Assembly (NCBI GenBank): GCA_029565915.1
Contig: JAKQNG010000204.1
Span: 8,755 to 72,754 of the forward strand
Length of the DNA: 64,000 nucleotides
Reading direction: 5' to 3'
DNA from: Deltaproteobacteria bacterium
GTDB lineage: Bacteria > Myxococcota_A > Polyangia > JAAYKL01
In this document: positions 2 to 52,019 of the stretch, in pieces
Numbering within the stretch: the stretch's first letter is position 1
How the letters are laid out: every line of letters begins with the position of its first letter
The notes under the pieces: generated by a model
Seen by the model: only the letters and a program-made list of their open reading frames with translations
Database searches by the model: none
Told to the model about the DNA's origin: nothing
Made by a program: the position numbers and the translations under genes

Positions 2-3000
2 CGGGACGGCAACCGGATCTACGCGGCCATCCTGGGCAGCGCCATCAACGAGGACGGGCGCACGGATGGCATCGCCCAGCCCGACAAGGACGCCCAGGTG
101 GCGGTGATGCGGGCGGCGTATGCGGACGCGGGGATCGATCCCTCCATCGTGGGACTGGTCGAGGCCCACGGGACAGGCACGGCGGCGGGGGATCCGGTTG
201 AGTGCAGCAGCATCGGACAGGTCATCGGCGCGGGGCGCACGGATCGGTGCCTCATCGGCTCGGTGAAGAGCAACATCGGCCACACGGAGCTGGCCAGCGG
301 CAGCGCGGGTCTCATCAAGCTGGCCCTCTCGCTCTTTCACGGGCAGGCCCCGCCGGTGGTCCACTTCCGCACGCCCAATCCGAAAATCGATTTCGACGGA
401 TGGCGACTGCAGGTGCCCGTGCGCGTGACGCCGGTTCCTGCAAGGGAAGGCATCCGTTACGGCGCCGTGAATTCCTTCGGCTTCGGTGGCGCCAATGCCC
501 ACCTGGTGCTGCGCTCCGTGCCGCCGGCAGAGACCCGGACCACCGGAGAAGGCCCTCTCTGTGCGCCCCTGTTCATTTCCGCGCGCTCCGAAAAATCCCT
601 GCGCCGCCTGGCGGGTGCCTACGCGGATCTTCTCGAAAAGGGCATCGACGGGCGGGAGCTGGCGCAGCAGGTCATCCGTCATCGATCCCGCCTCGAAGAC
701 GGACTCGCCCTGACGGACCCCCGGCATGCGGATGCGGCGGCCCGCCTGCGGAACTTTGCCAGGGGCAGGGACAGCGAGGGTGTCATCCCGGGTCGCCGGC
801 AGTTGCCGGAAAAGGGACAGACGGCGTTCGTGTTTTCCGGCCAGGGTCCCCAGTGGTGGGGCATGGGGCGGGAGCTGTTTTCCGCCGGGGGCGTCTACCG
901 GGATACAGTAGAAGAAGTGAGTGACCTGCTGAAACAAATCGGCTGGCTGAAAGAAGAAGGCAGCGATCTGGTCGCCGAGCTGCACAGGGACGAGGCATCG
1001 TCGCGGATGAACGAGACCGCCGTGGTCCAGCCGGCCCTGTTTGCCCTCCAGCTGGGGCTGGCGCGGCTCTGGATGTCCCACGGCGTCATGCCCGACATGG
1101 TGGTGGGCCACTCCATCGGCGAAGTGGCGGCGGCCTGTGTGAGCGGCGCCCTGACGGTTGCCGAGGCGGTGAAGGTGGTGTACTGGCGCAGCCGTTGTCA
1201 GTCCCGAGCAGCGGGGCGCGGCCGGATGCTGGCCGTGGGGCTTTCCGCGGAAGACGCCAGTGGCGCGATTGGGACCTTCGGCGGAAAAATTGACGTGGCG
1301 GCAATCAACGGGCCGGCCATGGTCACCCTGGCGGGCGACGCCGATGCCCTGGCCCTGCTGGCCCGCGGCCTGGAGGAGCGGGGCGTGTTCGTGCGCTTCC
1401 TGGTGGTGGACGTGCCGTTCCACAGCCACCTCCTCGACGATGTGGCCCGGGCCTTCTGCGAGGAGGTGCCCGCCATTGTGTCGTCGCCACCCCGCATCCC
1501 GCTCTATTCCACGGTGACCGGCCTTCCCGTGGAGGGCGCGGTCCTCGACAATGACTACTGGGCCGCCAACATCCGACAGCCGGTGCAGTTCTACCCCACT
1601 GTCCAGCGGATGGCCCGGGACGGCGCCGCCGCCTTCATCGAGATGAGCCCCCACCCGATTCTCGCCAACGGCCTGACCGCGGCCCTGTCCGCAGCGGGCA
1701 CAAAGGGCATCGTGATTTCCTCCCTGCGGCGGAAGGAACCGGATATTCCCACCTTTTCCGGAAACTTCTGCGCCCTGTGGCTGGCGGGCGGCGGCATCGA
1801 TCGAACGGTGTTCGGCCCCGGCGGTGCCCACCTGCGCGAACCCCTTCCCGCCTACCCGTTTGCGGAGGAGCGCTTCTGGCTCGAATCACCGGAGGCCCGC
1901 GCGGACCGCATCGGCACGAGAGTCCACGCCCACCTCGCCTCCTGCACCTCTGCCGCGGACGACGGGAACGATCAAATCTGGCAGGTGGAGCTGGACGCCC
2001 GCTGCGCCCCGTACATCCGGGATCACCGGGTGCAGGGCCCTCTGGTGTTTCCCGGGGCGGGACACGTGGATCTGGCCCTTGCCGCGGGCATGGCGTCCTT
2101 CGGTGACCGCTTGTGCTTTCTCGAAGACATCGAGTTCATCCGTCCCCTGTTCGTCCGGGAAGACGGAGAACCCGACGCCGTGCAGCTCCACGTGGTGGGC
2201 GACGAGGGAGACTACACCATCGCGGGGCGGACGGCGGAAAGGGACACGCCCTGGACCATTTTTTCGAAAGGCCGCATGAACTGCCTCGGCGAGGCATTCT
2301 GCACCGAACCCGTGTCCCTGAAGATGCTGAAGGCCCGCATTGTCCACCCGGTGGCCCTTCCGCCCCTGTTTGACGTGCTTGATCGGGGCGGACTGGTACT
2401 GGGCGACACGTTCCGGGGCATCCGCGCCCTGTGGCGGGGCGAAGGGGAATCCCTGGCGCGCATCGAGGCCCATCCGTCCATTGTGCACTCCCTGGCCCGT
2501 CACTGCATCCATCCGGCCCTCCTCGACGCCGGCTTCCAGTCCGCCTTCGGCATCCTCGCGCAGGAGGAGCGCATGGGCGTGTACATCCCGCGCCGCATCG
2601 GACGGGTGCGCTTTGCCGGCCCGCCCGCAGGAACGGTGCTGTACGCATGGGCCCGGGCGGCTGGCACGGACCGGGAACACCTGCGCGTGGATATCCGCAT
2701 CTTCAACGAGGACGGCAGCGACGTGTTGCAGGTGGAAGGGTTCGAAGGACAATACCTGAAGGGCTCGCGGGGCGAAGTGGACGCGGTCGACAGCCTGTTC
2801 TACCGCTATGAGCTCCGCCCCTGTGCGCGGCGCGACGAGCTGGTCACCCACCGGTTGGGCGCTGCCCTCGCACCTCCGGTTCCGGTGGACGAGGCCGTGC
2901 GCCGGACAATGGACCGCCACCGCGCCGATCCCCTGTCTGCCCGATTCTTCGACGCCCTCTCGCCGGCCATGGACGAACTGGCGATGGGTGTCATCCTCGA

Positions 3001-6000
3001 CGCCCTCCGATCACTGGATTCGACGTTGGCCGACGGTGCCTTCATCGACGGGTCCCGGCTGCTCGATCGGCTGGGCGTCGCGGAGCGGCACGAACGGCTC
3101 CTCCACGCCATGTTCGATCACCTCGTTGGCGCGGGCCTGGCCCGCCGGGAGTCCGCCGGGTGGCGCATGTCGGAATGGCCGAAAAAGGATGTCCGTCTGG
3201 TGGTGGCCAGGGCACAAACCGATCTGGCGCCTTTTGCCCGCGAAATTGAATTCTTCGCCCGGACCGGCGCCGAACTCGCCGCCGTGCTGCGGGGAGAAAC
3301 GGATCCGGGGGACGTGCTCTTTGCGGGAAACCGGTTTGACGAACTGGCCGACTACTACGCCAACTCCTTCACCACCGTCCGCATCAACCAGATGGCCGCT
3401 GACGCCTTCTGCGCGCTCCTTTCCACGGTTCCCGCCGGTCGTCCCCTGCGGGTGCTGGAGCTGGGCGCGGGCACCGGCGGCCTGACCCGGCACCTCCTGC
3501 CCCTGGTGGAAGAGCGGAACGGCACGTACCTGTTCACGGACCTGTCGCCCCTGTTCCTCGCCCGGGCGAGGGAAACCTTCAAGTACAACCCGGCAATGGA
3601 GTTCGCGGTGCTGGACATCGAAACGGATCCCGCTGCCCAGGGACAGATCCCTCACAGCTGGGACATCGTCGTCGCCTCGAACGTCCTTCACGCCACGGAG
3701 GACCTGCGCCGCACGCTGGCAAACTGTCGCTCCCTCCTGTGCGACAATGGCGTACTGTGCCTCGTCGAAGTGACAAGGGCGCCTCGATATCTCGATCTCA
3801 GCTTCGGCATGACCGAAGGCTGGTGGCGTTTCCGGGACGATGTGCGGACCGATCGCTGCACCCTGTCGGCGGAGGCCTGGCGCAGCGTGCTCGCGGAGTC
3901 CGGCTTTCCGGACGTGGCCGATTTCAGCGACGGCGAAGGACCGGATGCGGTGGCCCAGACACTGTTCGTTGCCCGGGCGCGAAGTGCTGCACAGGGAGAG
4001 CGGTTGGATCCGCGCCGTCCGAACGGCATCTGGCTGATCCTCGGCGACAATCGGGGCGTGTCCGCGGCGGTATCGGCCCTCCTCCGGGAGCGGGGCGATC
4101 GATGCATCCGCCTCACCTGCGCATCGAAAACGGCACCGACCGGTGTAGATCGCTTCGATTTCGATCCCGCCTGTCCGGACGCCCTCATCGACCATCTGCG
4201 GACCTTCGACGGACCTCTGCTGGGGGCACTGCACACCGCTTCGCTCGACCTGCCGCCCATCGAGGACAGCGACCCGACGGCGCTGCTGCGTGCGCAGGGA
4301 GACGGCGCCTGGTCGGCCATCGGCCTCGGCCGGGTGCTGTCCGCCGTGGGCAACGAGTCGTTTCTGTGGCTGGTCACCGCCGGTGTGCACGGCCCGACGC
4401 CGGCCCTGTCCCGGTCGCCCATGTGGGGTCTGGGTCGGGTGATGATGAACGAGCTCACCGGTGTGGCCGTGCGGCTGCTGGACGTGGACGGCGCCCTGCG
4501 GGTGGAGGACTGCGCGCGGATCGTGCAGGAGATGTGTGCGCCCTGTGCGGCGCCTTTCGAAGAAGAAATTGTTCTGCGGGACACGGGCCGCTTCGCAAAC
4601 GTCCTGGTGCGGGATCACCGGCCAAGGCGGATCGCCCGGGCCGTGCGGACGATTCCCTCCTGCGGGGCGACGGTGTCCCTGCGCCGGTCGTCCTCCTTTG
4701 TGCTGGACGATTGCATTTTCGTACCGTCGGACACGGCGATCTGCAGTGACGACGACGTAGCCATCGACGTGCATGTCGCGGGACTCAATTTCCGGGATGT
4801 GATGGTGGCCGGCGGAACCCTGCCGCGGGAAGCGGTGGAGGGCGGGCTTTTCGGCGATGCCCTCGGACTGGAGTGCGCGGGCATCGTGACGCAATGCGGC
4901 AGGCATGTCTCCCATGTGCGGGTGGGGGATGCGGTCATGGCCCTCGCCCGGGGGACCCTGTCGGGGCGCGTGGTCGCCCGGGGCGTTCTCACCCGGAAAA
5001 TTCCTTCGGGAATGGGGATGGCAGACGCCGCCGCCCTGCCTATGGCCCTGCTCACCGCCTGGTATTCGCTGGTGACCCTGGGCCGCCTGGAAGCGGGAGA
5101 GAGGGTGCTCATCCACGGGGCCGCCGGCGGGGTGGGCCTCGTGGCCGTTCAGCTGGCACAGGCCATGGGCGCTGAGGTATTCGCCACGGCGTCCAGGCCC
5201 AAGCACGACCTGCTGCGGGAACTGGGCGTCCGCTACGTGTTTGATTCCCGATCCGCCGCCTGGGCGGACGGGGTGGACGCCGCCGCGGAAGGGCGAGGGG
5301 TCAACGTGGTGCTGAACTCTCTCTCCGGCGTCCAGCTCACGCGGGGGCTGCGCCTGCTGGCGCCCATGGGTCGCTTCATCGAAATCGGCAAGGTGGACCT
5401 GTACGCAAACCGGCGCCTGGCCATGGGACTGTTGAAGGACAACGGCGCCTGGTTCAGTGTGGATATTGATCGGTTGCTGGTGCAGGCCCCGCAGAAGATG
5501 GCTGCCGCGTTCGATGAGGCCCTGCATTTCTTTGCGGTGCGCCGGTGGCCCGCACTGTCCGTGTCCGTGCATCCCTTGTCCGGGGCCGCTGATGCACTGG
5601 CCCTCATGGCAAAGGGCAACCATCGCGGTAAAATCGCGCTGGCCGCTGCGGATGTGCCGGTACACCCGGCCGAACACCTGACCGTGGCCAGGGACGGGGT
5701 ATTTCTCATCGCCGGGGGAACCCGGGGCTTCGGCCTTGCCGTGGGGACGTTTCTCGCGGACCGCGGTGCCCGGCACCTCGCCCTGCTGTCCCGGGGTGGC
5801 CTGCGAGGGGAAGAGGAAACCCGCGCGGTGGCCGCGCTGCGCCACCGGGGTGTGAATGTGGAAATTTTTGCGACAGACGTGACCGATCGCCTTGCTGTGG
5901 AGCGGGTGATTGCCGCCATTCATCGGGAGGAGCGTCCTCTGCGCGGCGTGTTCCAGTCCACGCTCGTGCTGGACGACGCCATGCTCGACCGGATGACCCG

Positions 6001-7549
6001 CCCCCAGCTGGACGGGCCCATGGCCCCCAAAGTGGCGGGCACCTGGAACCTGCACCTCGCCACGATCGGCATCCCCCTCGACTGGTTCGTCTCGTTTTCG
6101 TCCATCTCGTCCATTTATGGATTTCCCGGACAGGCGAACTATGCGGCAGCCAACCGGTTCCTGGACGATTTTGCCCTGTACCGTCGCTCCCTGGGGCTCC
6201 CCGGCACCACCATCAACTGGGGGGCACTGCAGGGCGCCGGATTCGTGGAACGCTCGGCCGCGGTGCGCAGTTTCCTCTCCAACAACGGCTGGGAAACGCT
6301 GACGCTGGAGGAGGCGCTGTCCGCCATGGAGCGCGTGCTGCTCGAAGGCCACCCGCAGATGGCCGTGTTCCGTGCGGACTGGTCCACCGTGGGACGCTCT
6401 TTCCCGGCCGGGTTGTCGTCCCTGCGGTTTGCCCATCTGCACGGCGCGGGTGCCGCCGAAAAGGACGACGGTGACCTGCGCGTGGCACTGACGGCGGCAG
6501 CTCCGGCGGCGCGGGCGATGCTGCTGCAGGGGTTCATTGCCGGGGCCACAGGGGCCATCATCGGTGCGGACGGCGCAAAGGTGGATCGACAGACGCCCCT
6601 CAACCGGCTGGGCCTCGATTCCCTGATGGCCAATCAGCTGCGCAGCGTACTGACCTCCCGCACGGGGGTCGAAATTTCTCTCATGCAGATCATGGCCGGG
6701 CCCACCATTGCGGATCTGGCCAACGAAATGGCATCCCGGTTCGAGAACACGGCGACGTCAGGCAGTGATCGTTCCGGTGGACAATGGGTGACGCGGGTCA
6801 CACCGGTTGCTTCACCGCAACTGCGGCTCTTCTGCCTGCCCTATCTGGGCGCCGGCGCCTCGATCTATTCGCGTTGGCAGGTGGGAGAAAACGTGGAGGT
6901 CTGTGCCATCGCCCTTCCCGGACGGGAAGAGCGCATCGGGGAGCCGCCTCTGACAGATGCCCATGAGTTGATCGAAACCATGGCCGGGGCTCTTCTGCCT
7001 CTGCTGGATGTGCCCTTTGCCATTTACGGCCACAGCTTCGGTGGAAACCTGGCCTTCAGCCTGGCGTCCTTCCTGCAGGAACGCCACGGAAAGGTACCCG
7101 ACCGCGTCTTCATCGGCGCCGCCGTGCCGCCGGGGATCGACAATCCCCTTGAAGAAGAGTTCCGCATTGCCGACAAGGATGAGGCCGCACGCCTCTCTGA
7201 CGACGCCCTGCGGGCGCTGCTCCAACGGCTCGGCGCACCGTCGGCGCTGATTCATGATGAAGCGGCGTTTTCCCGGATGGCACCGGCCCTGCGGGCGGAT
7301 CTGGCTATCGCCAAACAGCGTTTATTTCCGTCGGATCACCGTCTCCGCTGTCCCATCGTGGCCATTGCAGCCAGGGGTGACCACCTCTACAGCGAACAAC
7401 TTCTGCGTCACTGGCAACGGCATTCGGATGACTTTTCCCTGGAGGTTGTGAACGGCGGACACCTCTTCGTGCACGAAGACGAAGCAATGAAACACATACT
7501 GAAAATAATGTCACATCGATGGATCACACCGGCCCTGCGCTCGGCCTGA
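2..7549 (+). CDS. Type I polyketide synthase, 5'-truncated at the window edge. Domain order: KS (C-terminal part) - AT - DH - C-methyltransferase - ER - KR - ACP - thioesterase.
   Basis: The reading frame is open from nt 2 (RDGNRIYAAILGSAINEDGR... is a KS-like sequence). AT GHSIGE plus VPFHSH (malonyl-type). DH HxxxGxxxxP (HRVQGPLVFPGAGH). SAM motif LELGAGTGG. ER LIHGAAGGVGLVAVQLA. KR IAGGTRGFGLAVG. ACP LGLDSLMANQLRS. TE GHSFGG. Stop at 7547-7549. Confidence 0.9.
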   Translation, partial: RDGNRIYAAILGSAINEDGRTDGIAQPDKDAQVAVMRAAYADAGIDPSIVGLVEAHGTGTAAGDPVECSSIGQVIGAGRTDRCLIGSVKSNIGHTELASGSAGLIKLALSLFHGQAPPVVHFRTPNPKIDFDGWRLQVPVRVTPVPAREGIRYGAVNSFGFGGANAHLVLRSVPPAETRTTGEGPLCAPLFISARSEKSLRRLAGAYADLLEKGIDGRELAQQVIRHRSRLEDGLALTDPRHADAAARLRNFARGRDSEGVIPGRRQLPEKGQTAFVFSGQGPQWWGMGRELFSAGGVYRDTVEEVSDLLKQIGWLKEEGSDLVAELHRDEASSRMNETAVVQPALFALQLGLARLWMSHGVMPDMVVGHSIGEVAAACVSGALTVAEAVKVVYWRSRCQSRAAGRGRMLAVGLSAEDASGAIGTFGGKIDVAAINGPAMVTLAGDADALALLARGLEERGVFVRFLVVDVPFHSHLLDDVARAFCEEVPAIVSSPPRIPLYSTVTGLPVEGAVLDNDYWAANIRQPVQFYPTVQRMARDGAAAFIEMSPHPILANGLTAALSAAGTKGIVISSLRRKEPDIPTFSGNFCALWLAGGGIDRTVFGPGGAHLREPLPAYPFAEERFWLESPEARADRIGTRVHAHLASCTSAADDGNDQIWQVELDARCAPYIRDHRVQGPLVFPGAGHVDLALAAGMASFGDRLCFLEDIEFIRPLFVREDGEPDAVQLHVVGDEGDYTIAGRTAERDTPWTIFSKGRMNCLGEAFCTEPVSLKMLKARIVHPVALPPLFDVLDRGGLVLGDTFRGIRALWRGEGESLARIEAHPSIVHSLARHCIHPALLDAGFQSAFGILAQEERMGVYIPRRIGRVRFAGPPAGTVLYAWARAAGTDREHLRVDIRIFNEDGSDVLQVEGFEGQYLKGSRGEVDAVDSLFYRYELRPCARRDELVTHRLGAALAPPVPVDEAVRRTMDRHRADPLSARFFDALSPAMDELAMGVILDALRSLDSTLADGAFIDGSRLLDRLGVAERHERLLHAMFDHLVGAGLARRESAGWRMSEWPKKDVRLVVARAQTDLAPFAREIEFFARTGAELAAVLRGETDPGDVLFAGNRFDELADYYANSFTTVRINQMAADAFCALLSTVPAGRPLRVLELGAGTGGLTRHLLPLVEERNGTYLFTDLSPLFLARARETFKYNPAMEFAVLDIETDPAAQGQIPHSWDIVVASNVLHATEDLRRTLANCRSLLCDNGVLCLVEVTRAPRYLDLSFGMTEGWWRFRDDVRTDRCTLSAEAWRSVLAESGFPDVADFSDGEGPDAVAQTLFVARARSAAQGERLDPRRPNGIWLILGDNRGVSAAVSALLRERGDRCIRLTCASKTAPTGVDRFDFDPACPDALIDHLRTFDGPLLGALHTASLDLPPIEDSDPTALLRAQGDGAWSAIGLGRVLSAVGNESFLWLVTAGVHGPTPALSRSPMWGLGRVMMNELTGVAVRLLDVDGALRVEDCARIVQEMCAPCAAPFEEEIVLRDTGRFANVLVRDHRPRRIARAVRTIPSCGATVSLRRSSSFVLDDCIFVPSDTAICSDDDVAIDVHVAGLNFRDVMVAGGTLPREAVEGGLFGDALGLECAGIVTQCGRHVSHVRVGDAVMALARGTLSGRVVARGVLTRKIPSGMGMADAAALPMALLTAWYSLVTLGRLEAGERVLIHGAAGGVGLVAVQLAQAMGAEVFATASRPKHDLLRELGVRYVFDSRSAAWADGVDAAAEGRGVNVVLNSLSGVQLTRGLRLLAPMGRFIEIGKVDLYANRRLAMGLLKDNGAWFSVDIDRLLVQAPQKMAAAFDEALHFFAVRRWPALSVSVHPLSGAADALALMAKGNHRGKIALAAADVPVHPAEHLTVARDGVFLIAGGTRGFGLAVGTFLADRGARHLALLSRGGLRGEEETRAVAALRHRGVNVEIFATDVTDRLAVERVIAAIHREERPLRGVFQSTLVLDDAMLDRMTRPQLDGPMAPKVAGTWNLHLATIGIPLDWFVSFSSISSIYGFPGQANYAAANRFLDDFALYRRSLGLPGTTINWGALQGAGFVERSAAVRSFLSNNGWETLTLEEALSAMERVLLEGHPQMAVFRADWSTVGRSFPAGLSSLRFAHLHGAGAAEKDDGDLRVALTAAAPAARAMLLQGFIAGATGAIIGADGAKVDRQTPLNRLGLDSLMANQLRSVLTSRTGVEISLMQIMAGPTIADLANEMASRFENTATSGSDRSGGQWVTRVTPVASPQLRLFCLPYLGAGASIYSRWQVGENVEVCAIALPGREERIGEPPLTDAHELIETMAGALLPLLDVPFAIYGHSFGGNLAFSLASFLQERHGKVPDRVFIGAAVPPGIDNPLEEEFRIADKDEAARLSDDALRALLQRLGAPSALIHDEAAFSRMAPALRADLAIAKQRLFPSDHRLRCPIVAIAARGDHLYSEQLLRHWQRHSDDFSLEVVNGGHLFVHEDEAMKHILKIMSHRWITPALRSA

Positions 7550-7649: not shown

Positions 7650-8786
7650 CTATTCCAGAATGATGAACGCGTCGCAGGGGCAGGAAACCGAAACGGCGAC
7701 ATTGCCGGTCTTGATGGATGCGCAGGCGTCTCCCACGAGCTCAATCTGGGACGGCGAGTTCATCTGCCATCCGTCCGGGTCCTCAAAGTCGAGGCGGGAC
7801 ACGTCGTCGCCGGCCGTGATGGAGACGTCACAGCTGCTCTGTTTGCCGTCCACCATTTCGCCCGTCAGATCGAGGACGCAGCTGCGCACGCCGTTGATAA
7901 TGGTGTCGAACGCCTCCACGAGTCCCTGTCCGTCCGTGGCTTCCCACCACTGCGCGTCCGTCATGGCACCCACGCCCGCATTGGCCAGATTCTGCATGTG
8001 CGACGCGGTGGTGTCTGCCCCGACGCTGATGATGTAGGTGGACACGCCGGCCGCAAAGGCCGCCGCCACCTGTTCTTCCGAATAGGCCCGGGCCTCCGCC
8101 GTCTGGGGGTCGGGAACCGCGCAGGTGTCCGGATCGCCGTCCGTGGCCAGCACGATGACCTTCGGACCGGGCTCGTCGATGGCCAGCAGCTCCGCGGCGA
8201 TGAGCTGGACCGACTCGGCGGTGGGGGTGTCCTCGCCCATGTCCGCCGGATCGAACAGATCATAAATGGCCGGGTAGTTGTCGAGGGCCGGCGCCACGGT
8301 GGTCAGCAGGGGGCATTCGTCGGGAACGGACCCGCCGTTGTAGCTGGTGTACAGGGCGATGCCGAAGCGCACCCGATCATCGAGCTGGAGAACGATGCCG
8401 TTTGTTTCGTCAATGAGCACCTCCTTCACCACCTCCCAGCGGGACGGGTCCCCGTGACCGGGAAACCCCGCGTCCATGCTGCTGGATTGATCGATGAGCA
8501 GGTACACCGTGGGAATCTGCGGGGTGAACGCCACATCCGCTTCGCCACAGACGGCCCCGGTGTCGGTATCGCTGTCCGTGTCGGTATCGCTGTCCGTGTC
8601 GGCATCACTGTCCCCGTCAGTGTCTCCGTCGGTGTCGGCATCACTGTCGCCGTCGGTGTCGCCGTCGGTGTCCGCATCGGTGTCCCCGTCGGACCCTCCC
8701 AGGTCGTCGCTGCAGGCGCCGGGCAGAAGCGCGATGCCAATCCACAGCGCCAGAAAGAAATAGAGAGCCTTTTGAGCGTTTTTCAT
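7650..8786 (-). CDS. Secreted vWA-domain lipoprotein with a (D-T/S-D-G/A)n acidic linker.
   Basis: Lipobox LLPGAC. Long DTDGDTDGDSDADTD repeat. MIDAS motif LLIDQSSSMD. RBS AAAGGAGA lies upstream of the ATG at 8786 (alternative ATG at 8804). Confidence 0.75.
   Translation of the reverse strand: MKNAQKALYFFLALWIGIALLPGACSDDLGGSDGDTDADTDGDTDGDSDADTDGDTDGDSDADTDSDTDTDSDTDTGAVCGEADVAFTPQIPTVYLLIDQSSSMDAGFPGHGDPSRWEVVKEVLIDETNGIVLQLDDRVRFGIALYTSYNGGSVPDECPLLTTVAPALDNYPAIYDLFDPADMGEDTPTAESVQLIAAELLAIDEPGPKVIVLATDGDPDTCAVPDPQTAEARAYSEEQVAAAFAAGVSTYIISVGADTTASHMQNLANAGVGAMTDAQWWEATDGQGLVEAFDTIINGVRSCVLDLTGEMVDGKQSSCDVSITAGDDVSRLDFEDPDGWQMNSPSQIELVGDACASIKTGNVAVSVSCPCDAFIILE
8561..8690. repeat. Tandem repeats (18-nt units, two copies exact) encoding the acidic linker of the vWA lipoprotein.
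   Basis: gtcggtatcgctgtccgt occurs twice exactly at 8562-8597, followed by degenerate copies (gtcggcatcactgtcc..., gtcggtgtcgccgtc...). Confidence 0.7.
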
Positions 8787-8963
8787 GAGATCTCCTTTAC
8801 CCATCGCCGGCGGGTTCCCCCGTCGCGGTCCTGATGATTAGTTGTTTCATCCAGCCGGGATTCCGCAATGCGGCTGTTGGATTCTACCGATTTTCACAGA
8901 ACGGTCGGAATGTTTTTAGTGAGGCAGGATGTTTGGACAAATACTGCAGAACGACCGTGTCTG

Positions 8964-9037
8964 TGGCGGGGGGGAGACTTGAACTCCCGACCTGTGGGTT
9001 ATGAATCCACCGCTCTAACCAGCTGAGCTACCCAGCC
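8964..9037 (-). tRNA. tRNA with CAT anticodon (elongator Met, initiator, or Ile-lysidine type).
   Basis: The reverse complement reads GGCTGGGTAGCTCAGCTGGTTAGAGCGGTGGATTCATAACCCACAGGTCGGGAGTTCAAGTCTCCC-CCCCGCC-A. It has canonical D-arm, T-arm and anticodon-loop signatures. There is one T:C mismatch in the acceptor stem. CCA is not encoded. Confidence 0.8.
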
Positions 9038-9211
9038 TCATGGCCGAACCGGGGCAGGCGCGGCGCGGCCTGTTGATTAGAGGAAAACCGCCGGGCGGTC
9101 AAGCCCCTGTGGGGTCCAGCGAGTCAAAAAGATTTAGGGAACAGGGTGTTTCGTGGTATGGCAGCGCCGTTAAATACAGGAACGCGGACGCGTTCCGTCA
9201 CGAGGTGCGGC

Positions 9212-10675
9212 ATGGCTGAAACCGGAAAGATAACAAAGCAGTCGGAAGATTTTCCCGCGTGGTATCAGGATGTGATCAGGGAAGGGGATCTGGCGGAAGT
9301 GGCGAAGATCGTCAAGGGATGCATGGTCATCAAGCCCCACGGCTATGCCATCTGGGAAAAAATCCAGGCCGACCTGGATCGCCGGTTCAAGGAAACCGGA
9401 CACCGCAACGCCTATTTTCCGCTGCTCATTCCCATGTCGTTCATCAAGAAGGAAGCCGAGCACGTGGAAGGGTTCGCTCCGGAAATCGCGGTGGTCACCC
9501 ATGCGGGCGGAAAACCCCTGCCCGAGGACGAGCAGTACTGCATCCGGCCCACGTCGGAGACCATCATCGGACACTTTTTCGCGAAATGGATCAGCTCGTA
9601 TCGCGATCTGCCCCTGCTGATCAACCAGTGGGCGAACGTCATGCGCTGGGAGCTGCATACCCGCATGTTCCTGCGCACCACCGAGTTCCTCTGGCAGGAA
9701 GGGCACACGGCCCACGCCACCCATGAGGACGCCCTTGCCGAAGTGGCGCGGATGCTGGACGTGTATGGGGACTTCGCGCAGGAGATGATGGCCATGCCGG
9801 TCATCCGCGGCGTGAAAACCGATTCGGAAAAATTCGCGGGCGCCCTGGAAACCCGCTGCATCGAGGCGATGATGCGGGACGGCCGGGCCCTGCAGGCCGG
9901 CACCAGCCACGATCTGGGCCAGAACTTCGGAAAGGCCTTTGACGTGAAATTCCAGACCGAAAAGGGCCGGGAGGAATACGTGTGGCAGACGTCCTGGGGC
10001 GTGTCCACCCGGCTCGTGGGCGCGCTGATCATGACCCACTCGGACGACTCGGGCCTCATCCTGCCGCCGGCGCTGGCCCCCGTGCAGGCGGTCATCGTGC
10101 CGATTTACAAAAAGGAAGAAGAGCGGGCACAGGTGGTGGAAGCGGCGCAGAAGCTGGCGGCGGACATCCGGAAAAAAGGCATCTGCGTTGAAGTGGATGA
10201 TCGGGACGGCAAGCGACCCGGCGACAAATACTACGAATGGGAGCGCAAGGGCGTGCCCGTCCGCATCGAAATCGGTCCGCGGGATATCGCCTCGGGGGAG
10301 GCGATGACAAAGCTGCGCCTTTCCGACGGCAAAGAAAAAATGCGCATGGATACCCTGGCGGCGGAGCTGCCCGGCACCCTGGCGGGCTTCCAGCGTTTTC
10401 TGTATGAGCGGGCCTGGAAATTCCGCGAGGACAATACGGTGGTCCTCAACACCTGGGATGAATTCCGTGAGGTGTTCGGCGAGAGCGGCGGTTCGAAGTT
10501 CGCCTGGTGCCACTGGGACGGCACAAGGGAAACCGAAGCGCTCATCAAGGAAGAAACAAAAGTGACCATCCGCTGCATCCCCCTCGAAGGCCAGGGTCCC
10601 GCGCCCGAAGACGGAACATGCATCCGCACGGGAAGGCCCTCCCGGCAACGGGTGCTCATGGCGCGGTCATACTGA
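9212..10675 (+). CDS. proS: Prolyl-tRNA synthetase (class II, archaeal/eukaryotic-like short form).
   Basis: N-terminus [14 protein letters not shown]...[10 protein letters not shown]. Class II motifs and a C-terminal zinc-less tail. RBS GAGGTG precedes the ATG at 9212. Confidence 0.9.
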
Positions 10676-14798: not shown

Positions 14799-15279
14799 AC
14801 ACCCACATCACCTGCAGGGTGCGCGCCCCATCGGGCGTTTCGTCCCCCGCGTCGTATCCCCGGTCCGACAGCTCCATCATCACGATGAGATTGGACGCGT
14901 CATCGCTGACTGCCCGCATGGTGATGGCGCAGTTCACGGTGACCACCACGCCGCCATCAAAGGAGGAAGCATCGCCCCGCACCGGCTCGCTGCACGAGAA
15001 CGTGTCCTTGAGCTGGACCGACGAACTGAGCTGTTCAATCAGGGTGATGCGGCCTTCATATCTCGAAAAATCGTCGTCGTCCGGATCCCAGACGGTCACT
15101 ACGAATTCGGTGAGCGTGTTGTTTTCGGCATAGTTGACCCCTTCCACCGGCGGATCTGCCGAAACGAACTGAGGGGGCTGGTTCCGCCGCAGGCTGAATT
15201 CGATTTCGTCCGACACCACGCAGGCGTCGGCGAGGACGGAAACGAGGATCAGAACGGCGACGGGGACAACGGGCTTCAT
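14770..15279 (-). CDS. Small secreted lipoprotein (169 aa).
   Basis: Signal peptide [20 protein letters not shown]. Its ATG overlaps the stop of the upstream activator gene (ATGA). Confidence 0.55.
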   Translation of the reverse strand: MKPVVPVAVLILVSVLADACVVSDEIEFSLRRNQPPQFVSADPPVEGVNYAENNTLTEFVVTVWDPDDDDFSRYEGRITLIEQLSSSVQLKDTFSCSEPVRGDASSFDGGVVVTVNCAITMRAVSDDASNLIVMMELSDRGYDAGDETPDGARTLQVMWVYEIFAQNLL

Positions 15280-17141
15280 GCCTTTTCCAGATAGCGGTAG
15301 ATGGTGCGCGGATCCACATCCAGCTCTTCGGCGGTCTGTACCCGGTTTCCACCGTTCTTTTCGAGGGCATCGAGGATGTACTGCCGCTGGAATCGCTCCC
15401 GTGCCTCCGCCAGGGTCTCTCCCTTCCGCGCCGTCTCTTCGCCCAGATCGAGATCATCGGGCCCCACCATTGAGCCGTCGCACAGGATGACCGCCTTCTT
15501 GATGCGGTTTTCCAGCTCCCGCACATTGCCGGGCCACGAGTGGCGTCGGATGGCGGCCATGGCGCCGGGACTGAACCCTTTCGCGGCGGAACCGAATTCG
15601 TCCGCGTATCGCTGCAGCAGATAGCGGGCCAGCAGGAGCACATCGTCTCCCCGCTCCCGCAGGGCCGGCAGCTCGATGTGTATGACGTTCAGCCGATAGT
15701 ACAGGTCTTCCCGGAACGCGCCCCGTCGGATTTCCTCCTCCAGGTTGCGGTTGGTCGCGGCCAGCACGCGGATGTCCAGGGTTTCGGTCTTCGTGGCGCC
15801 GACTTTCACCACCTGATGTTCCTGCAGTACCCGCAGAATTTTCACCTGCAGGGCCATGGGCATCTCGCCGATTTCGTCGAGGAAGATCGTGCCTTTGTCC
15901 GCAGCCTGGAACTTGCCGGGCCGGGTGGCTTCCGCACCGGTGAACGCACCTTTCACGTGACCGAAGAACTCCGATTCCATGAGGGTTTCGGGGATGGCGC
16001 CGCAGTTCACGGTGACAAAGGGACCCTGGCGCCGCTGACTCCGGCGGTGGATTTCCCGGGCGATGAGTTCCTTCCCGGTACCCGTTTCGCCGCCGATGAG
16101 CACGGACACTTCCGTGGCCGCCACCTTTTCCACCGTCTTGAACACCTGCTCCATGACCGGCGATGCACCGATAATCTCGCCGAACCGCTGATTGTCCAGC
16201 TCCCGGGACAGGGCCTCGTTGCGCAGCTTCAGCTCGTTCAGCAGCAGGGCGTTCTGCACGATGAGGGAGGCCTGGGCGGCGAACACCTTCAGCAGCTCCA
16301 GAGTGCCGGGCTCGAACAGGCCCCGCACCGTGTCGTTGCCCAGATAGATCAGCCCCAGCAGCTCGTCCTTGTGCTGCAGGGGCGCACACATCACCGAGCT
16401 GAGTTTCAGGTTGATGACGGATTGGGCGTGGGCGAACTTGTCGTGGCTCTGGGCGTCCGATACGATGATGGCGCTGCGGCTCTGCACCACCTGCGCCACG
16501 ATGCTGTCTGACAGCTGGCTCACCGCGGAGCCCAGGTTTTCCCGGTGCAGGTTTCTGGCCACCTTGATGATGGGCTCCCCGTCTTCAAACAGGATAAGAA
16601 ATCCCTTGGCCGCGCCCGTGATCTCGATGACACCGTCCATCAGTGCGTCGAGGACCTCGTCGACGGAGCCATGGCTGAAGAGGGAACTGGTGAACTCCTG
16701 CAGCTTGTGAAGGCCCGCCAGCTCCGCGCCCCGCCCGGATTCCCTGGAACGCACCGCGGATTCCGCCAGCATGCTGAATACGAAATCCGCCCGGCCCAGG
16801 GCAAATCGGTCCTGGTGGGCGAGGCGGCTCCGGCGCTTCTTTTTACCGTTCAGCACAAAGTCGTCGCCGTCCTCGATGCAGGCAAGGGAAAAATCCTTCC
16901 CGTCGAACACGAGCTGCACGTGGTAGGGCGCCAGGCCCAGATCCCTGACGACCACATCGTTTTCGGGGGCGGCGCCGATGGTGGTGATCGCTTTGGCAAT
17001 GGCGATACTGCTGCGATTGCCGTCTGTTGATCGCCAGCTGAGCGTGGGCATGAATCGTTCTTCCTGTTGGGACGGAGACGCCGGAATCCGCCTGTTGCCA
17101 TCTGTCTGCCGCAGTGTAGGACAAAACGGCAGTTCGCTCAA
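15276..17141 (-). CDS. Sigma-54-dependent transcriptional activator with N-terminal FHA and GAF domains (FHA-GAF-AAA+ sigma-54 activation domain-HTH).
   Basis: AAA+ motif [21 protein letters not shown] motif ([15 protein letters not shown]). C-terminal Fis-type HTH ([19 protein letters not shown]). N-terminal FHA-like segment and a GAF region. Confidence 0.9.
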
Positions 17142-18624: not shown

Positions 18625-19566
18625 CTATTTCACGATGGAGGCCACAACCCGGTTTCTGCCTTTCTGCTTGGCCTCGTAGAGGTTTTCATCCGCCGTGCGC
18701 AGCAGGGCATCGCCGTTCATCACTCCGGCACCGCAGAGGGTGGCCGCACCGAGGCTGATGGTAACCGGCACACGAATGCCTTCTTCGGTCAGGATGCGCA
18801 GGTCCTGGACGATCTGACGCAGGCGTTCCGCCAGAGCCACCGCCCCTTCCGGCGCGATGTTGCGCGCCAGCACCACGAACTCCTCGCCGCCGTACCGGGC
18901 CGCCAGATCCTCCCCCCGCAGGGTGCGGGCCACGGCGCGAGCCACCCGGCACAGTACATCATCGCCGACGAGATGGCCCCAGGTGTCGTTTACCTTTTTA
19001 AAGTGATCGAGGTCGAACAGGATGGCGGACAGATGCGTACGGTGGCGCACGGCAAAGGACAGCTCGCTGCGGAGCATGTCGTCGAAATACCGGCGGTTGA
19101 AGACCCCGGTCAGTCCGTCCTTCACTGCGGATTCGTACATCTGCGACTGGTAGTGTTCGTCAAACGTGTCCACCCGCATGAAGCGCAGGATGGTGGAGCG
19201 GCCCAGGACCACCTTGTCCCCTTCGGAAAAGACGTGGCGCGCCACCCGTTCCCGTCCTACCCAGATGCCGTTGGTGCTGTTCATGTCTTCAATGATGCAG
19301 CGGTTCTGATCGTCGAGGACCACGCGGGCGTGAATCCTTGAAATCCCGTCATCGGAAATGATGAAATCGCACTCCTCGCCGCGGCCGATGAGCATGGGTG
19401 ATCGATCAATGATGAGGGAGCTGCCCCGGTCGATACCCTGCACCACGATGAGGGAGGGTCGCAGGGAGCTGCCCTCCCGGGCCGTGAGCATGTTCACCGT
19501 GGAGCGGTCGAAATTGAGGGTGATGTCCTCCTGCGGCAGCGCGATTTTGTCCGTTTTCTTCTGCAT
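18625..19566 (-). CDS. FHA-domain diguanylate cyclase (FHA-GGDEF).
   Basis: FHA core (LIGRGEECDFIISDDGISRIHARV...STNG). GGDEF domain with intact GGEEF and an RxxD I-site (RGED five residues upstream). Start ATG at 19566; the ORF-track N-terminal extension is rejected. Confidence 0.9.
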   Translation of the reverse strand: MQKKTDKIALPQEDITLNFDRSTVNMLTAREGSSLRPSLIVVQGIDRGSSLIIDRSPMLIGRGEECDFIISDDGISRIHARVVLDDQNRCIIEDMNSTNGIWVGRERVARHVFSEGDKVVLGRSTILRFMRVDTFDEHYQSQMYESAVKDGLTGVFNRRYFDDMLRSELSFAVRHRTHLSAILFDLDHFKKVNDTWGHLVGDDVLCRVARAVARTLRGEDLAARYGGEEFVVLARNIAPEGAVALAERLRQIVQDLRILTEEGIRVPVTISLGAATLCGAGVMNGDALLRTADENLYEAKQKGRNRVVASIVK

Positions 19567-19611
19567 GGGTCTTCCGGCAACTGGCGCCAGAATAGCGCAG
19601 GTCGGGCTTTC

Positions 19612-19640
19612 TTGACATACCTGTGGAAAGGTATTACTAT
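19612..19640 (+). promoter_or_regulatory. Near-consensus sigma-70-type promoter for the PilZ operon: TTGACA - 17 nt - TACTAT.
   Basis: TTGACA at 19612-19617 and TACTAT at 19635-19640 with a 17-nt spacer, inside an AT-rich 110-nt divergent intergenic region. RBS AGGAGA at 19664-19669. ATG at 19679. Confidence 0.5.
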
Positions 19641-19678
19641 GTAAACAATTTAAGTACATTGTAACAGGAGAAATCACA

Positions 19679-20143
19679 ATGTCACACAACAAGCGTTCCC
19701 AGTTCCGCGTGCCCGAATCCCGGCTCATCACCGAGTTTTCGAAAAACACACCTTTCGCGTCGAGCATTGTCAACCTGAGCTTCGACGGGTTGTACACGGT
19801 CAAGCCCTGCGAAAGCCTGACGACACCCCGGGGTCTCATCCAGCTCGAAATCCCGGTGCCCGAGGCAAGCGAGTCCATCTGGGCCACCGGCGAAGTGCTG
19901 TACGAGCACCACGGCGCAAAATCCGTGGGAACGGGTATCCGCCTGCGGAACATGGCGCAGTTTCACCGCAACCTGCTGCGGGATCTGGTGGAAAGCGGTC
20001 GCCGACAGGTACTGGCGGACATGCTGCAGCAGATTCTGTGGCAGCGCCAGCTCGCCCAGTATCCTACGCTGTTCGATGCCCCGGCGCCGCCGGTGACCGA
20101 GCACACGGTGCCCATGTTCCGCCTCGCGGACCTGCACCCCTGA
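19679..20143 (+). CDS. PilZ-domain c-di-GMP-binding protein.
   Basis: RxxxR motif RSQFR and (D/N)xSxxG motif NLSFDG at the expected spacing. Confidence 0.75.
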   Translation: MSHNKRSQFRVPESRLITEFSKNTPFASSIVNLSFDGLYTVKPCESLTTPRGLIQLEIPVPEASESIWATGEVLYEHHGAKSVGTGIRLRNMAQFHRNLLRDLVESGRRQVLADMLQQILWQRQLAQYPTLFDAPAPPVTEHTVPMFRLADLHP

Positions 20144-23766: not shown

Positions 23767-25184
23767 TTTTTCTGTGCGTCCTTTTTCTGCCGTTCCTTTT
23801 CTGCCTTCAATCGCTCTTTCAGCAGCGAACCGTAACCTTCCTTGTTGGTCTGGCGCACGCGCGAAATGGCCAGGGCACCTGCCGGCACATCGGATACAAC
23901 AGTGGTCCCCGAGGCCACGTAGGCACCTTCGCCGACGGTGACCGGGGCCACGAGCTGGGAATCGGAGCCGACAAATACGTTGTCGCCGATGACGGTCTGA
24001 TGCTTGAGAAAGCCGTCGTAATTGCAGAAAATGCAGCCGGCGCCCAGATTCACGTTGTCGCCGATGAGTCCGTCCCCCAGATAGGCCAGATGATTTGCCT
24101 TGGCGCCTTCTCCCATGACAGTTTTTTTCAGCTCCACCCAGTTGCCGACCTTTGCTTTCTTCTTCAGGACCGCACCGGGCCGCAGGCGCGCCATGGGCCC
24201 GACTTCGGCCATGGGCCCGACCACCGCTTCGTCCAGCACGGAATAAGCGCGGATCACGGCGGCGTCTTCGATTGTGCTGTCCCGCAGGATGGCACCGGCC
24301 TCAATGGTACAGCCCCGCCCGATGCGGGTGTTTCCCAGCAGCCGGACCATGGGGCCGAGCACCGTGTCTTCGCCGATGCGGCAATGCGCTTCGATGGTGA
24401 CGGTTTCCGGCCGCTCGACAGTGACCCCCGCGCGCATCCACTGCTGAACGATCCGCCGCTGCTGCACTGCCGCCAGATGGGCCAGATCCACCCGATCATT
24501 GACGCCGGTCACTTCGTCCGGTTCCGCCTCCACGATGGCCACCTGCGATTTCTGCGCTGCGATGGCCACCAGATCGGTCAGATAGAATTCGCCCTGGGCG
24601 TTGGCACTTTTCAGCTTCTGCAGTGATCGGCGCGCAAAGGCCGCGTCCATGAGGTAGATGCCGGAATTGACGAGACCGATACGGCGCTGGGCCGGCGTGC
24701 AATCCCGGTGTTCAACGATGGCGCAGACCTGTCCGTCCGTTTCGATGACCCGCCCGTAGCCCGTCGGATCCGCCGGGCGAAAGGCAATAAAGGCCAACGG
24801 CCCTTTTACGCGTCGCCATTCTTTTGCAAGTCGCGCCACGGTATTTTTCTGCAGCAGGGGAACATCCCCGTAAAGGATCAGCAGCGGGCCTTCGGTTCCC
24901 TTCAGGGCGGGCAGTGCACTCATTACCGCATGGCCGGTGCCGAGCTGCTGTTCCTGATGGGCAAACTGCACGTTCTGAAATCCCGCGCCGCCAACCGCCG
25001 ATTCCACGTCTTCACGTTGATGCCCCACCACCACCACGGTGCGACTGCTCCCGAGGTCGGCGGCCAGTTGGAGCGGATAGTGGATGAGCGGCTGCCCGCA
25101 TAGGGGATGAAGCACCTTGGCCGTGGCCGATTTCATCCGGGTACCTTTGCCGGCGGCCAGTACAATAGTGGCAACGTCTTTCAT
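23763..25184 (-). CDS. glmU: Bifunctional GlmU (UDP-GlcNAc pyrophosphorylase / GlcN-1-P acetyltransferase).
   Basis: IVLAAGKGTRMKS nucleotidyltransferase motif. C-terminal left-handed beta-helix hexapeptide repeats. RBS AAGGA. Confidence 0.9.
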   Translation of the reverse strand: MKDVATIVLAAGKGTRMKSATAKVLHPLCGQPLIHYPLQLAADLGSSRTVVVVGHQREDVESAVGGAGFQNVQFAHQEQQLGTGHAVMSALPALKGTEGPLLILYGDVPLLQKNTVARLAKEWRRVKGPLAFIAFRPADPTGYGRVIETDGQVCAIVEHRDCTPAQRRIGLVNSGIYLMDAAFARRSLQKLKSANAQGEFYLTDLVAIAAQKSQVAIVEAEPDEVTGVNDRVDLAHLAAVQQRRIVQQWMRAGVTVERPETVTIEAHCRIGEDTVLGPMVRLLGNTRIGRGCTIEAGAILRDSTIEDAAVIRAYSVLDEAVVGPMAEVGPMARLRPGAVLKKKAKVGNWVELKKTVMGEGAKANHLAYLGDGLIGDNVNLGAGCIFCNYDGFLKHQTVIGDNVFVGSDSQLVAPVTVGEGAYVASGTTVVSDVPAGALAISRVRQTNKEGYGSLLKERLKAEKERQKKDAQKK

Positions 25185-25193
25185 GAACAGTCC

Positions 25194-26816: not shown

Positions 26817-26990
26817 CGCTGCGTACGCGTTTCAGGTCTGTCCTGCTTTACCACAACGTATCGGGGTAGTCTATTTCCGCCAATTCGCCCCGCGGAAAAA
26901 TCCCGGGAACCCGGACGCCCTTCCCGCTGTCCATTTCTGCAGAAGCCACGGCACACAACCCGTGGAAAATCGACAACAGGGAGGTCGGCC

Positions 26991-37761: not shown

Positions 37762-37802
37762 GTTTCTGTCGTAGGTTCCGCCGGATCAGCGTGTCGGCGC
37801 AT

Positions 37803-38291
37803 TCATTGGCACGGGGTGGTCGGCAGTCCCGCGGCGGTCCATGCGTCGATGCCGCCGTCCAGAATCCACAGGGATGTGTATCCGCTTTCCTGAAGGGTCG
37901 TGAAGGCACTCTCGCTGCGTACGCCCCGCCGGCAGTAAATCAGGATGTCCGCATCAACGGAAACTTCGGTGAGGCGATCCGGCAGCTGATCCCAGGGAAT
38001 CAGCAGGGATTCGCCGATGCAGCCGAGCTCGTAGAATTCCACGTCGGCCACGTTGAGCAGCAGCAGGTCTGCACCTCCTTCGAGGGCGGCCGACAACTGG
38101 TCCGGAGAAACGAATTTCTGCGCAGGAAGCGATGCCGTTTCGCTGTTGCTGTCCTCGTCTTCCGAGGACGACGTGTCTGCGCCCGTCGCGGAGGTATCGG
38201 AATCCCCGTCCGGTGGCGACGGGGAGTCGGCGCAACGACCGCCGAGCAGCGCCGGCGCGAAAAAAAGCAGGAGAACAGATATGGTTTTCAT
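37803..38291 (-). CDS. Secreted rhodanese-domain sulfurtransferase with an acidic N-terminal linker.
   Basis: Signal peptide. Active-site loop YCRRGVRS. Confidence 0.75.
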   Translation of the reverse strand: MKTISVLLLFFAPALLGGRCADSPSPPDGDSDTSATGADTSSSEDEDSNSETASLPAQKFVSPDQLSAALEGGADLLLLNVADVEFYELGCIGESLLIPWDQLPDRLTEVSVDADILIYCRRGVRSESAFTTLQESGYTSLWILDGGIDAWTAAGLPTTPCQ

Positions 38292-38300
38292 GGTTGTTCC

Positions 38301-40280: not shown

Positions 40281-40431
40281 CCGACTGTCCACCCCTTCAT
40301 CGGAACGCTGGAGACAACTGACAGAACATCAATGTTACTTTATCGCGCGATAATTAGAACAGAGAAAACCCGTCGGTGCTGCTTTCCCATCTTTCCTTGC
40401 AGACTCCCCGGGCCGTCACTACGATGCACCC

Positions 40432-42893: not shown

Positions 42894-43124
42894 ATGAACG
42901 AAATGTTACTGCAGGGGCTTGAACTGATGGCAGCCGGCATGGGAACGGTCTTTCTGTTTCTCATCATCATGGTCTACGTGATGCACCTGTCGGGCGTGAT
43001 CCTCCGGCGGATGGGCACCGGCGAGACCGCGTCACCGGGTGGCGGCAGCGCGGGCGCCGGCGGGGATTCTCTTGAACAGGTTGCTGTGGCAATTGCAGCG
43101 GCGAAACGTCATACGCAGGGTTGA
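42894..43124 (+). CDS. oadG: Oxaloacetate decarboxylase gamma subunit.
   Basis: 76 aa with one N-terminal TM helix (LMAAGMGTVFLFLIIMVYVM). Located immediately upstream of oadA. Confidence 0.7.
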   Translation: MNEMLLQGLELMAAGMGTVFLFLIIMVYVMHLSGVILRRMGTGETASPGGGSAGAGGDSLEQVAVAIAAAKRHTQG

Positions 43125-52010: not shown

Positions 52011-52019
52011 GAGGTACCC

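Follow-up and report, generated by a model that had tools for sequence, protein, structure and literature searches.

Polyketide synthases (PKSs) with comparable domain sets have been described as the stand-alone mycocerosic acid synthase (MAS) of mycobacteria, as modules of the CurJ/JamJ type inside multi-module proteins, as fungal highly reducing PKSs (HR-PKSs) such as LovB, and as a monomodular PKS with a C-methyltransferase (cMT) in Streptomyces. Here we compare these systems with a PKS gene whose 3' 7.5 kb open a 64,000-nt stretch of DNA from a Deltaproteobacteria bacterium (assembly GCA_029565915.1, contig JAKQNG010000204.1, positions 8,755 to 72,754; the whole stretch is called the window below). 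The encoded protein has the domain order ketosynthase (KS), acyltransferase (AT), dehydratase (DH), cMT, enoylreductase (ER), ketoreductase (KR), acyl carrier protein (ACP) and thioesterase (TE). Directly upstream of it, outside the window and hence missed in an earlier, sequence-only reading of this DNA, lies a gene of the GH3 family. In the explanation that we favor, with a probability of about one half, this stand-alone single-module highly reducing PKS and the GH3 enzyme would together make a methyl-branched N-acyl amino acid-type compound.

The Streptomyces enzyme (S. rochei cluster SRO_6377-6381; orthologue P0106 in S. murinus and S. griseofuscus) is 37% identical to the PKS over 100% of the query, agrees with it in all eight domains and their order at a length of 2,812 aa, and is likewise a single module with a fused TE. 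Its locus, however, belongs to a different phylum and carries genes for a P450, a halogenase-like flavoenzyme, an SDR protein and a 4HBT thioesterase where the locus described here has GH3. MAS and the MAS-like mycobacterial PKSs are also stand-alone, single-module and fully reducing, and serve the synthesis of methyl-branched fatty acids, but MAS has neither a cMT nor a TE and takes its methyl branches from methylmalonyl-CoA, whereas the window PKS has an AT with GHSIGE and VPFH motifs, an intact cMT and a C-terminal TE with Ser, Asp and His. The product of MAS-like PKSs is off-loaded by a separate acyltransferase. Against the corresponding NCBIfam models the PKS stays below the equivalog thresholds, with 801 bits for Pks2_ls1_myc (cut-off 2,400) and 808 bits for PKS_plus_SDR (cut-off 1,740). 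The CurJ/JamJ-type cis-AT modules share the order KS-AT-DH-cMT-(ER)-KR-ACP and give the best matches among solved structures for KS-AT (CurL) and cMT (CurJ) and, second to 7TZL, for DH; they lie inside multi-module proteins, whereas the window PKS stands alone with its own TE. Fungal HR-PKSs have the order KS-AT-DH-cMT-ER-KR-ACP in one polypeptide, and an iterative logic is presumed for both, but their sequence similarity to the PKS is below that of bacterial enzymes in every region compared; to our knowledge, they normally have no fused TE. The order in animal fatty acid synthase (FAS), KS-MAT-DH-(pseudo)ME-ER-KR-ACP-TE, is identical to that of the window PKS including the terminal TE. Its scores are nevertheless much lower (see below), its methyltransferase-like domain is inactive whereas the cMT of the PKS is intact, and the structural matches of the ACP-TE region contain no FAS TE-domain chain, only the separate human TE II (4xjv). 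For the GH3 partner, the closest described system is OlsH, a planctomycete GH3-like lyso-ornithine lipid synthetase, in which a bacterial GH3 enzyme uses ATP to join free fatty acids to an amino acid, giving N-acyl ornithine (PMC12493201). The GH3 linked to the window differs in that its acid would come from a dedicated PKS and not from the fatty acid pool, and in that neither an OlsI partner nor an alpha/beta-hydrolase gene is present in the putative GH3-PKS operon on the two contigs that carry it (L001 and L002).

The reading frame in the window has 2,515 codons, no internal stop and a TGA end, and corresponds to residues 262-2776 of P0001, a protein of 2,776 aa in public data with which the window translation is 100% identical; all catalytic motifs are intact. 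The truncation of the gene by the window at its 5' end, noted from the letters alone, therefore amounts to 261 codons, with the start codon 783 nt upstream of position 2. P0001 has the N-terminal sequence MTQKKESRTPIAIVGIGCRFPGG and further on DTACSSS, so the KS begins at residue ~10 and includes the active-site Cys, with no loading domain, N-terminal ACP or docking region ahead of it. The two contigs, both from JGI metagenomes, carry the PKS gene together with upstream sequence and show, in the direction of the PKS, an unannotated gene, an alpha-amylase-family gene, a sigma-54 response regulator, one or two small open reading frames (ORFs), and the GH3 gene (554 aa), which is on the same strand and stops 27 nt ahead of the PKS start. 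No second PKS, nonribosomal peptide synthetase, acyl ligase or phosphopantetheinyl transferase (PPTase) gene was found in these 8 kb upstream, and the other 56 kb of the window contain no further KS, AT, KR or TE, no PPTase and no AMP-ligase. Since the KS starts at residue ~10, the TE forms the C-terminus and other PKS genes are absent from the flanks, the PKS is a stand-alone single module and not part of an assembly line; true multi-module loci in our genome scan (see below) show 2-4 KS units within 20 kb. The sequence-only reading had allowed that upstream sequence might reveal one module of an ordinary assembly line, and the sequence recovered there shows a single module.

Pfam matches and motif positions (Table 1) bear out that reading on the order of the domains, on the cMT, which is intact, and on the malonyl-type motifs of the AT, and the E-values of 1e-10 to 1e-69 exclude a chance match of the domains. 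The catalytic residues of all eight domains are invariant in an alignment of 22 sequences (A1; homologues of 2,770-2,830 aa), among them C182, H317 and H355 of the KS, motif I and the His and Glu of the cMT, GGVG of the ER, K2271, S2294, Y2308 and N2312 of the KR, and S2468 of the ACP. In the cMT, the His lies in SNVLHAT and the Glu 26 residues further on in LCLVEVT; the motifs align with those of CurJ (E 7e-56), and we take the two residues to be the catalytic His-Glu dyad described for CurJ. The degenerate cMT considered in the earlier reading was thus not seen. The LDD motif of the KR presumably marks it as B-type. In an alignment with Lsd14 and DEBS, whose ATs are of the methylmalonyl type, the AT shows GHSIGE against GHSQGE and VPFH against YASH, that is, Ile at the position of the Gln and Phe at the position of the YASH Ser, and because of these two diagnostic positions it is predicted to be malonyl-type. 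The terminal TE, also recognized from the letters, appears to be a hydrolase-type domain, its matches among solved structures being hydrolytic type II TEs.

By length, domain order and active-site motifs, the PKS belongs to a known bacterial kind of single-module, presumably iterative, cMT-containing type I PKS. About 96 of its best 100 homologues have 2,769-2,828 aa, 99-100% query coverage and the same Pfam set; sources among the best 100 include metagenome-assembled genomes (MAGs) of "Deltaproteobacteria" (46-51% identity) and Bacteroidota (~37%) as well as Nocardia, Streptomyces and Kibdelosporangium (36-38%). At least five bacterial phyla contain homologues. When 185,579 GTDB species genomes were scanned with a cMT pattern, 79 loci were returned, the source genome and its closest clade not being among them. 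Exactly one KS-AT-MT-ER-KR-TE unit is present in 35-38 of the 79, from Bacteroidota, Nocardia, Leptospirales, one Burkholderiales MAG and one Chitinispirillaceae MAG, and about 25 are multi-module, with repeated KS-AT-MT-(ER)-KR units, in cyanobacteria, Chloroflexota, Acidobacteriota and other groups. The AT domains of the single-module family members are 42-60% identical to that of the PKS, compared with 29-35% for the multi-module loci. The P0106 locus (L006) comprises five genes in 12,790 bp, encoding a P450, P0106, a halogenase-like flavoprotein, an SDR protein and a 4HBT thioesterase. A five-gene S. rochei cluster with a cMT-containing iterative PKS is listed as "Type I PKS (Iterative)" (PMC6662830); its listed span equals that of L006, so we matched the P0106 locus to it, and by analogy with this orthologous cluster the module described here is presumably used iteratively. 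Monomodular clusters of S. griseofuscus gave citreodiols and allenomycins upon heterologous expression (PMC7896053). The cloning-primer arms for allenomycin and citreodiol do not map within L006, and the P0106 cluster was not matched to either product. Our literature searches found no description of the KS-AT-DH-cMT-ER-KR-ACP-TE architecture in bacteria.

A side result concerns a deposited structure. The DH domain of P0106 (S. murinus, S. griseofuscus, S. rochei) and PDB 7TZL share 99.6% identity, the entry covering residues 910-1188 of that protein (L006:10728-11564); 7TZL was deposited as '3-oxoacyl-[acyl-carrier-protein] reductase' and is actually a PKS DH. A literature search found no paper that mentions 7TZL.

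The sequence-only reading had presented the PKS as a fungal-style oddity that resembles fungal HR-PKSs more than bacterial enzymes, and had described typical bacterial modular PKSs as lacking the cMT. The likeness in domain order stands; the likeness in sequence and the rarity in bacteria do not. We compared each region of the PKS by sequence with all solved structures in the PDB (values below are bit scores). For KS-AT, CurL (621), Lsd14 (584), DEBS (573) and MAS (557) score above Dictyostelium PKS16 (475), LovB (471), PsoA (457) and animal FAS (378). For DH, 7TZL (150) and CurJ (84) are followed by CurF, CurK, CurH and MAS (55); the eukaryotic match is Dictyostelium PKS16 (32), and LovB is undetected. 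For cMT, the bacterial scores are 193 (CurJ), 141 (DisA) and 117 (AprA), and the eukaryotic scores 147 (PksCT), 136 (PsoF) and 114 (LovB). For ER-KR, MAS (300) and a spinosyn module (247) lie above FAS (216) and LovB (95). For ACP-TE, the matches are RifR, 6vap, RedJ, human TE II and TesA (60-95), with the DEBS and Pik TEs at ~22 and human TE II as the only eukaryotic protein. The best full-length match is MAS (915). Judged by these scores, "fungal-style" holds for the domain order only, every region scoring best against bacterial enzymes, and the PKS is a mosaic of bacterial cis-AT-like and MAS-like regions. LovB falls below bacterial enzymes in all regions compared, and the ~25 multi-module bacterial loci with repeated cMT-containing units contradict the view that bacterial modular PKSs typically lack this domain. 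Given the large bacterial family of equal length and architecture, the PKS is not an oddity. A neighbor-joining tree of 107 cMT sequences (283 columns, 100 bootstraps) groups L001, L003 and L004, the latter two being close relatives described below, in a clade with 100/100 support; monophyly of the single-module cMTs has 27/100 with Kimura distances and is recovered with BLOSUM62 distances, and the fungal-versus-bacterial split has 51/100, the deep branches being poorly resolved. Since monophyly depends on the method and the bootstraps are low, we draw no deep conclusion from the tree and put the weight on the score differences.

The GH3 protein is full-length, with Pfam matches to GH3 (E 4e-58), GH3_M and GH3_C, and aligns end to end with the structures of plant GH3 acyl-acid amido synthetases (E 2e-24); in this alignment, TTSGTTGEPK, YVATE and YRYDMND stand opposite the nucleotide-binding motifs of the plant enzymes, TSSGTSAGERK, YASSE and YRYRVGD. 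Its linkage to the PKS is conserved in the closest relatives, in three gene arrangements. First, the GH3 gene immediately precedes the PKS gene, in the same orientation, in L001/L002 and L092, which are from one organism, and in L003, L004, L086 and L087, where the identity of the PKS to the query is 45-49%; in L003 and L004, the start and stop codons of the two genes overlap. Second, in L007, from a Chitinispirillaceae MAG, GH3 directly follows the PKS. Third, GH3 and a HAD hydrolase gene are divergent from the PKS in L091, where the PKS is 36% identical. Eight further GH3 homologues lie on contigs equal in size to contigs with PKS homologues. The loci with the pair are from uncultivated "Deltaproteobacteria"/Myxococcota-like bacteria, from Chitinispirillaceae and from one or more other lineages (L091). 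In L087, alone among the GH3-PKS loci, an acyltransferase gene stands ahead of the pair, its best NCBIfam match being the model for the lyso-ornithine-lipid O-acyltransferase OlsA. As one element of the explanation to which we gave even odds, GH3 and PKS would form a two-gene operon.

The explanation that we favor starts from what is observed, namely the domain set, the intact active sites, the single-module status, the family membership and the conserved GH3 synteny. The AT would load malonyl units, and the KS would condense them repeatedly on the single ACP. The cMT would add alpha-methyl branches derived from S-adenosylmethionine (SAM) in some or all of the cycles, and KR, DH and ER would reduce the chain to a degree that may differ from cycle to cycle, as full reduction cannot be assumed for an iterative enzyme. 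Hydrolysis by the fused type II-like TE would then release a free, methyl-branched carboxylic acid resembling a fatty acid, which the GH3 enzyme would adenylate with ATP and join to an amine, most likely an amino acid. GH3 enzymes act on free carboxylic acids, the kind of product expected from a hydrolytic type II-like TE, and it is this fit that suggests a PKS-fed GH3 reaction. The end product would be an N-acyl amino acid, an aminolipid-type compound. Our literature searches combining GH3, PKS and N-acyl amino acids brought up no description of such a pairing, and we tentatively suggest, with somewhat less than even confidence, that the pair makes methyl-branched N-acyl amino acid lipids by a route not yet described and is a PKS-fed counterpart of the OlsH pathway.

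Several observations weigh against this explanation. The GH3 gene is absent beside the PKS in L088, L089 and the Bacteroidota, Nocardia and Streptomyces loci, so the PKS does not require it, and GH3 homologues at 36-45% identity occur mostly with a HAD hydrolase gene and without a PKS. In Legionella, knockout of a GH3 gene borne on a polyketide cluster left the product unchanged (PMC5640695). The GH3 protein matches a single NCBIfam model, that of OlsH, but its 95 bits stay below the cut-off of 620, and it does not count as an equivalent of OlsH. No PPTase gene lies nearby on either side of the PKS. The whole AT scores best against methylmalonyl-/ethylmalonyl-type ATs, the malonyl call being made at two diagnostic positions only.

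The separate occurrence of GH3 and PKS genes and the Legionella knockout would suit an enzyme that is functionally unrelated to the PKS product, acting on another acid, on a starter ahead of the PKS or in the synthesis of a separate aminolipid, with shared regulation behind the adjacency; its homologues that lack a PKS sometimes accompany an MMPL transporter and a PPTase. We nevertheless consider this unlikely, as the adjacency is kept through three gene orders among PKS homologues only 36-51% identical to the window protein, the codons overlap in L003 and L004, and GH3 chemistry needs the free carboxylate that a hydrolytic TE would supply. We also know of no GH3 enzyme that loads carrier proteins.

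Equally unlikely, in our estimate, is that the PKS extends a long-chain acyl starter by one or a few methyl-branched, fully reduced C2 units, in the manner of MAS but with methyl groups from SAM, to give a 2-methyl or oligomethyl-branched long-chain acid that may or may not be conjugated by GH3. MAS extends long acyl-CoA starters, and it is both the closest full-length structure and the best ER-KR match of the PKS. Bacteroidota relatives also have genes for a FadD-like acyl ligase and a PlsC-type acyltransferase beside the PKS, which points to fatty acyl substrates and a lipid fate there. P0001, however, has no N-terminal loading ACP or fatty acyl-AMP ligase (FAAL) domain, no acyl ligase gene is present in the locus (8 kb upstream and the window), and the Streptomyces relatives are classed as iterative, building short chains de novo (PMC6662830).

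Those same relatives suggest a product of another kind, a short, partly unsaturated methylated polyketide for which ER and cMT would act in selected cycles. A homologue of the same architecture lies in the Streptomyces cluster listed as an iterative cMT-containing PKS, a candidate for citreodiol-type products (PMC6662830), and the monomodular S. griseofuscus clusters yield citreodiols and allenomycins (PMC7896053). We rate this slightly below the two preceding alternatives, since the Streptomyces clusters were not matched to products, overall identity to the Streptomyces clade is only 37%, and the tailoring genes differ, with a P450, a halogenase-like protein and an SDR protein there against GH3 here. 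Finally, it is highly improbable that the gene is one module of an ordinary multi-module cis-AT line or that it was recently acquired from a fungus: the domain order equals that of CurJ/JamJ-type modules and fungal HR-PKSs and the cMT tree separates fungal from bacterial sequences poorly, but the KS start, the TE end and the lack of another PKS gene in the 8 kb upstream and 56 kb downstream led us to reject the former, and the higher scores of all regions against bacterial than fungal enzymes, a GC content at third codon positions (GC3) like that of housekeeping neighbors and the homologues in at least five bacterial phyla to reject a fungal origin or recent horizontal transfer beside the tRNA.

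Further observations were made on the wider set of GH3 homologues. In L096, L097, L100, L139 and about 50 of the loci L093-L171, all on metagenome contigs, the gene after a GH3 homologue (36-45% identity) very often encodes a HAD-family hydrolase, with no PKS, and in termite-gut, rumen and gut metagenomes GH3 paralogues form tandem arrays of 2-5 genes. L090 (10001-16736) and L093 have genes for GH3, a HAD hydrolase, a putative acyltransferase, an MMPL-family transporter and a PPTase in one direction, a cassette that points to lipid metabolism and looks like lipid synthesis and export. In L133 (211-7796) and L135 (975-4474), a much more divergent KS/AT-containing synthase, 27-31% identical to the PKS, is encoded after genes for a PlsC-like acyltransferase and GH3, and GH3 may thus be coupled to more than one kind of synthase.

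Table 1 Features at the 5' end of the window. Positions are nucleotides of the window; residues are those of the window protein.
Feature	Position	Strand	Pfam residues (E-value)	Basis and motifs
PKS gene, 3' 7.5 kb	2..7549	+		Translation; identity to P0001
KS, C-terminal half, and start of KS-AT linker	2..634	+	7-122 (5e-38) and linker	Pfam Ketoacyl-synt_C, KAsynt_C_assoc
KS motifs	161-181; 266-283	+		EAHGTGT; KSNIGH (His-His motifs; active-site Cys, in DTACSSS, upstream of the window)
AT	827..1756	+	276-585 (5e-69)	Pfam Acyl_transf_1; GHSIGE 1106-1123, VPFHS 1412-1426
DH	1925..2758	+	642-919 (7e-17, 3e-25)	Pfam PKS_DH_N, PS-DH; HRVQGPLVFP 2024-2053, LLDAGFQ 2519-2539
cMT	2957..3982	+	1140-1303 (2e-20)	Pfam Methyltransf_12 (class I methyltransferase)
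cMT motifs	3455-3481; 3677-3697; 3755-3775; 3803-3826	+		LELGAGTGG (motif I); SNVLHAT; LCLVEVT; FGMTEGWW
ER	4748..5641	+	1583-1880	Pfam ADH_N, ADH_zinc_N, ADH_zinc_N_2; NADPH motif HGAAGGVG 5114-5137
KR	5696..6232	+	1899-2077 (3e-60)	Pfam KR; GGTRGFG, LVLDD (LDD motif 5963-5977), catalytic K, S, Y, N
ACP	6554..6724	+	2185-2241 (3e-10)	Pfam PP-binding; phosphopantetheine Ser in GLDSL 6611-6625
TE, type II / PF00975 kind	6824..7513	+	2275-2504 (7e-31)	Pfam Thioesterase
TE motifs	7028-7045; 7367-7384; 7451-7468	+		GHSFGG; AARGDH (Asp); NGGHLF (His)
vWA protein, secreted/lipoprotein-like	7650..8804	-		Convergent; Pfam VWA (E 2e-7)
tRNA-Met (CAT)	8963-9037	-		ARAGORN; 1,414 nt beyond the PKS stop

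Downstream of the PKS, the tRNA-Met at ~1.4 kb and the convergent gene for a von Willebrand factor A (vWA) lipoprotein were both found where the sequence-only reading had placed them. The vWA protein (N-terminus MKNAQKALYFFLALWIGIALLPGAC) has a VWA domain and a signal peptide ending in LPGAC, which is lipobox-like, followed by long acidic D/T/G repeats; it weakly matches the model of the Myxococcus gliding-motility lipoprotein CglB (27.6 bits, cut-off 200). Neither the tRNA nor the vWA gene is kept next to the PKS in the relatives' loci, where the GH3-PKS pair stands in unrelated neighborhoods. No integrase was found in the window neighborhood, and there is no GC3 shift at the PKS (0.80; GH3 0.83; neighbors 0.75-0.86, including prolyl-tRNA synthetase (ProRS) at 0.78 and an aminotransferase at 0.82). 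The even GC3, the lack of an integrase and the lack of conservation in relatives make the tRNA and the vWA gene incidental neighbors with no sign of an island, and the vWA gene is probably not part of the PKS system.

As to the organism, the closest relatives of the ProRS are from "Deltaproteobacteria bacterium" MAGs (75-82% identity), followed by Myxococcota (71%), and the contigs on which the PKS gene was found belong to JGI metagenome samples 3300010353 and 3300010355 and to an assembly of activated sludge. The ProRS ORF in the window (9146-10675, plus strand, 509 aa) probably starts ~22 codons too early; in the database the protein has 487 aa (96% of the query). ORFs of 915-1,095 aa at 25107-28394 (plus), 37791-40595 (plus) and 42967-45717 (minus) have GC3 values of 0.61-0.66 and no Pfam match and are shadow ORFs; the genes opposite them encode hybrid histidine kinases (25194-26816 and 38301-40292, minus) and the alpha and beta subunits of oxaloacetate decarboxylase (43039-46362, plus). 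An 866-aa fusion protein at 50382-52985 (minus) combines a rubrerythrin/rubredoxin-like part, a pyridine nucleotide-disulphide oxidoreductase and a rubredoxin-reductase C-terminal domain, and this protein and the Na+-translocating oxaloacetate decarboxylase, taken together, suggest that the organism lives anaerobically or as a microaerophile. A DUF5777 beta-barrel gene is flanked by genes for an FHA-GAF-sigma-54 activator (15276-17141, minus) and an FHA-GGDEF diguanylate cyclase (18625-19953, minus); FHA-coupled signaling is typical of Myxococcota-like genomes.

The comparison corrects the view of the KS-AT-DH-cMT-ER-KR-ACP-TE architecture as fungal, placing it in a large bacterial single-module family. 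For one clade of that family, the conserved GH3 partner leads to a concrete prediction, that a branched acid made by the PKS is joined to an amine. If true, this would be a compact two-gene system for methyl-branched acyl amides, would give a first function to PKS-linked bacterial GH3 enzymes, and would represent a new biosynthetic logic for bacterial aminolipids.

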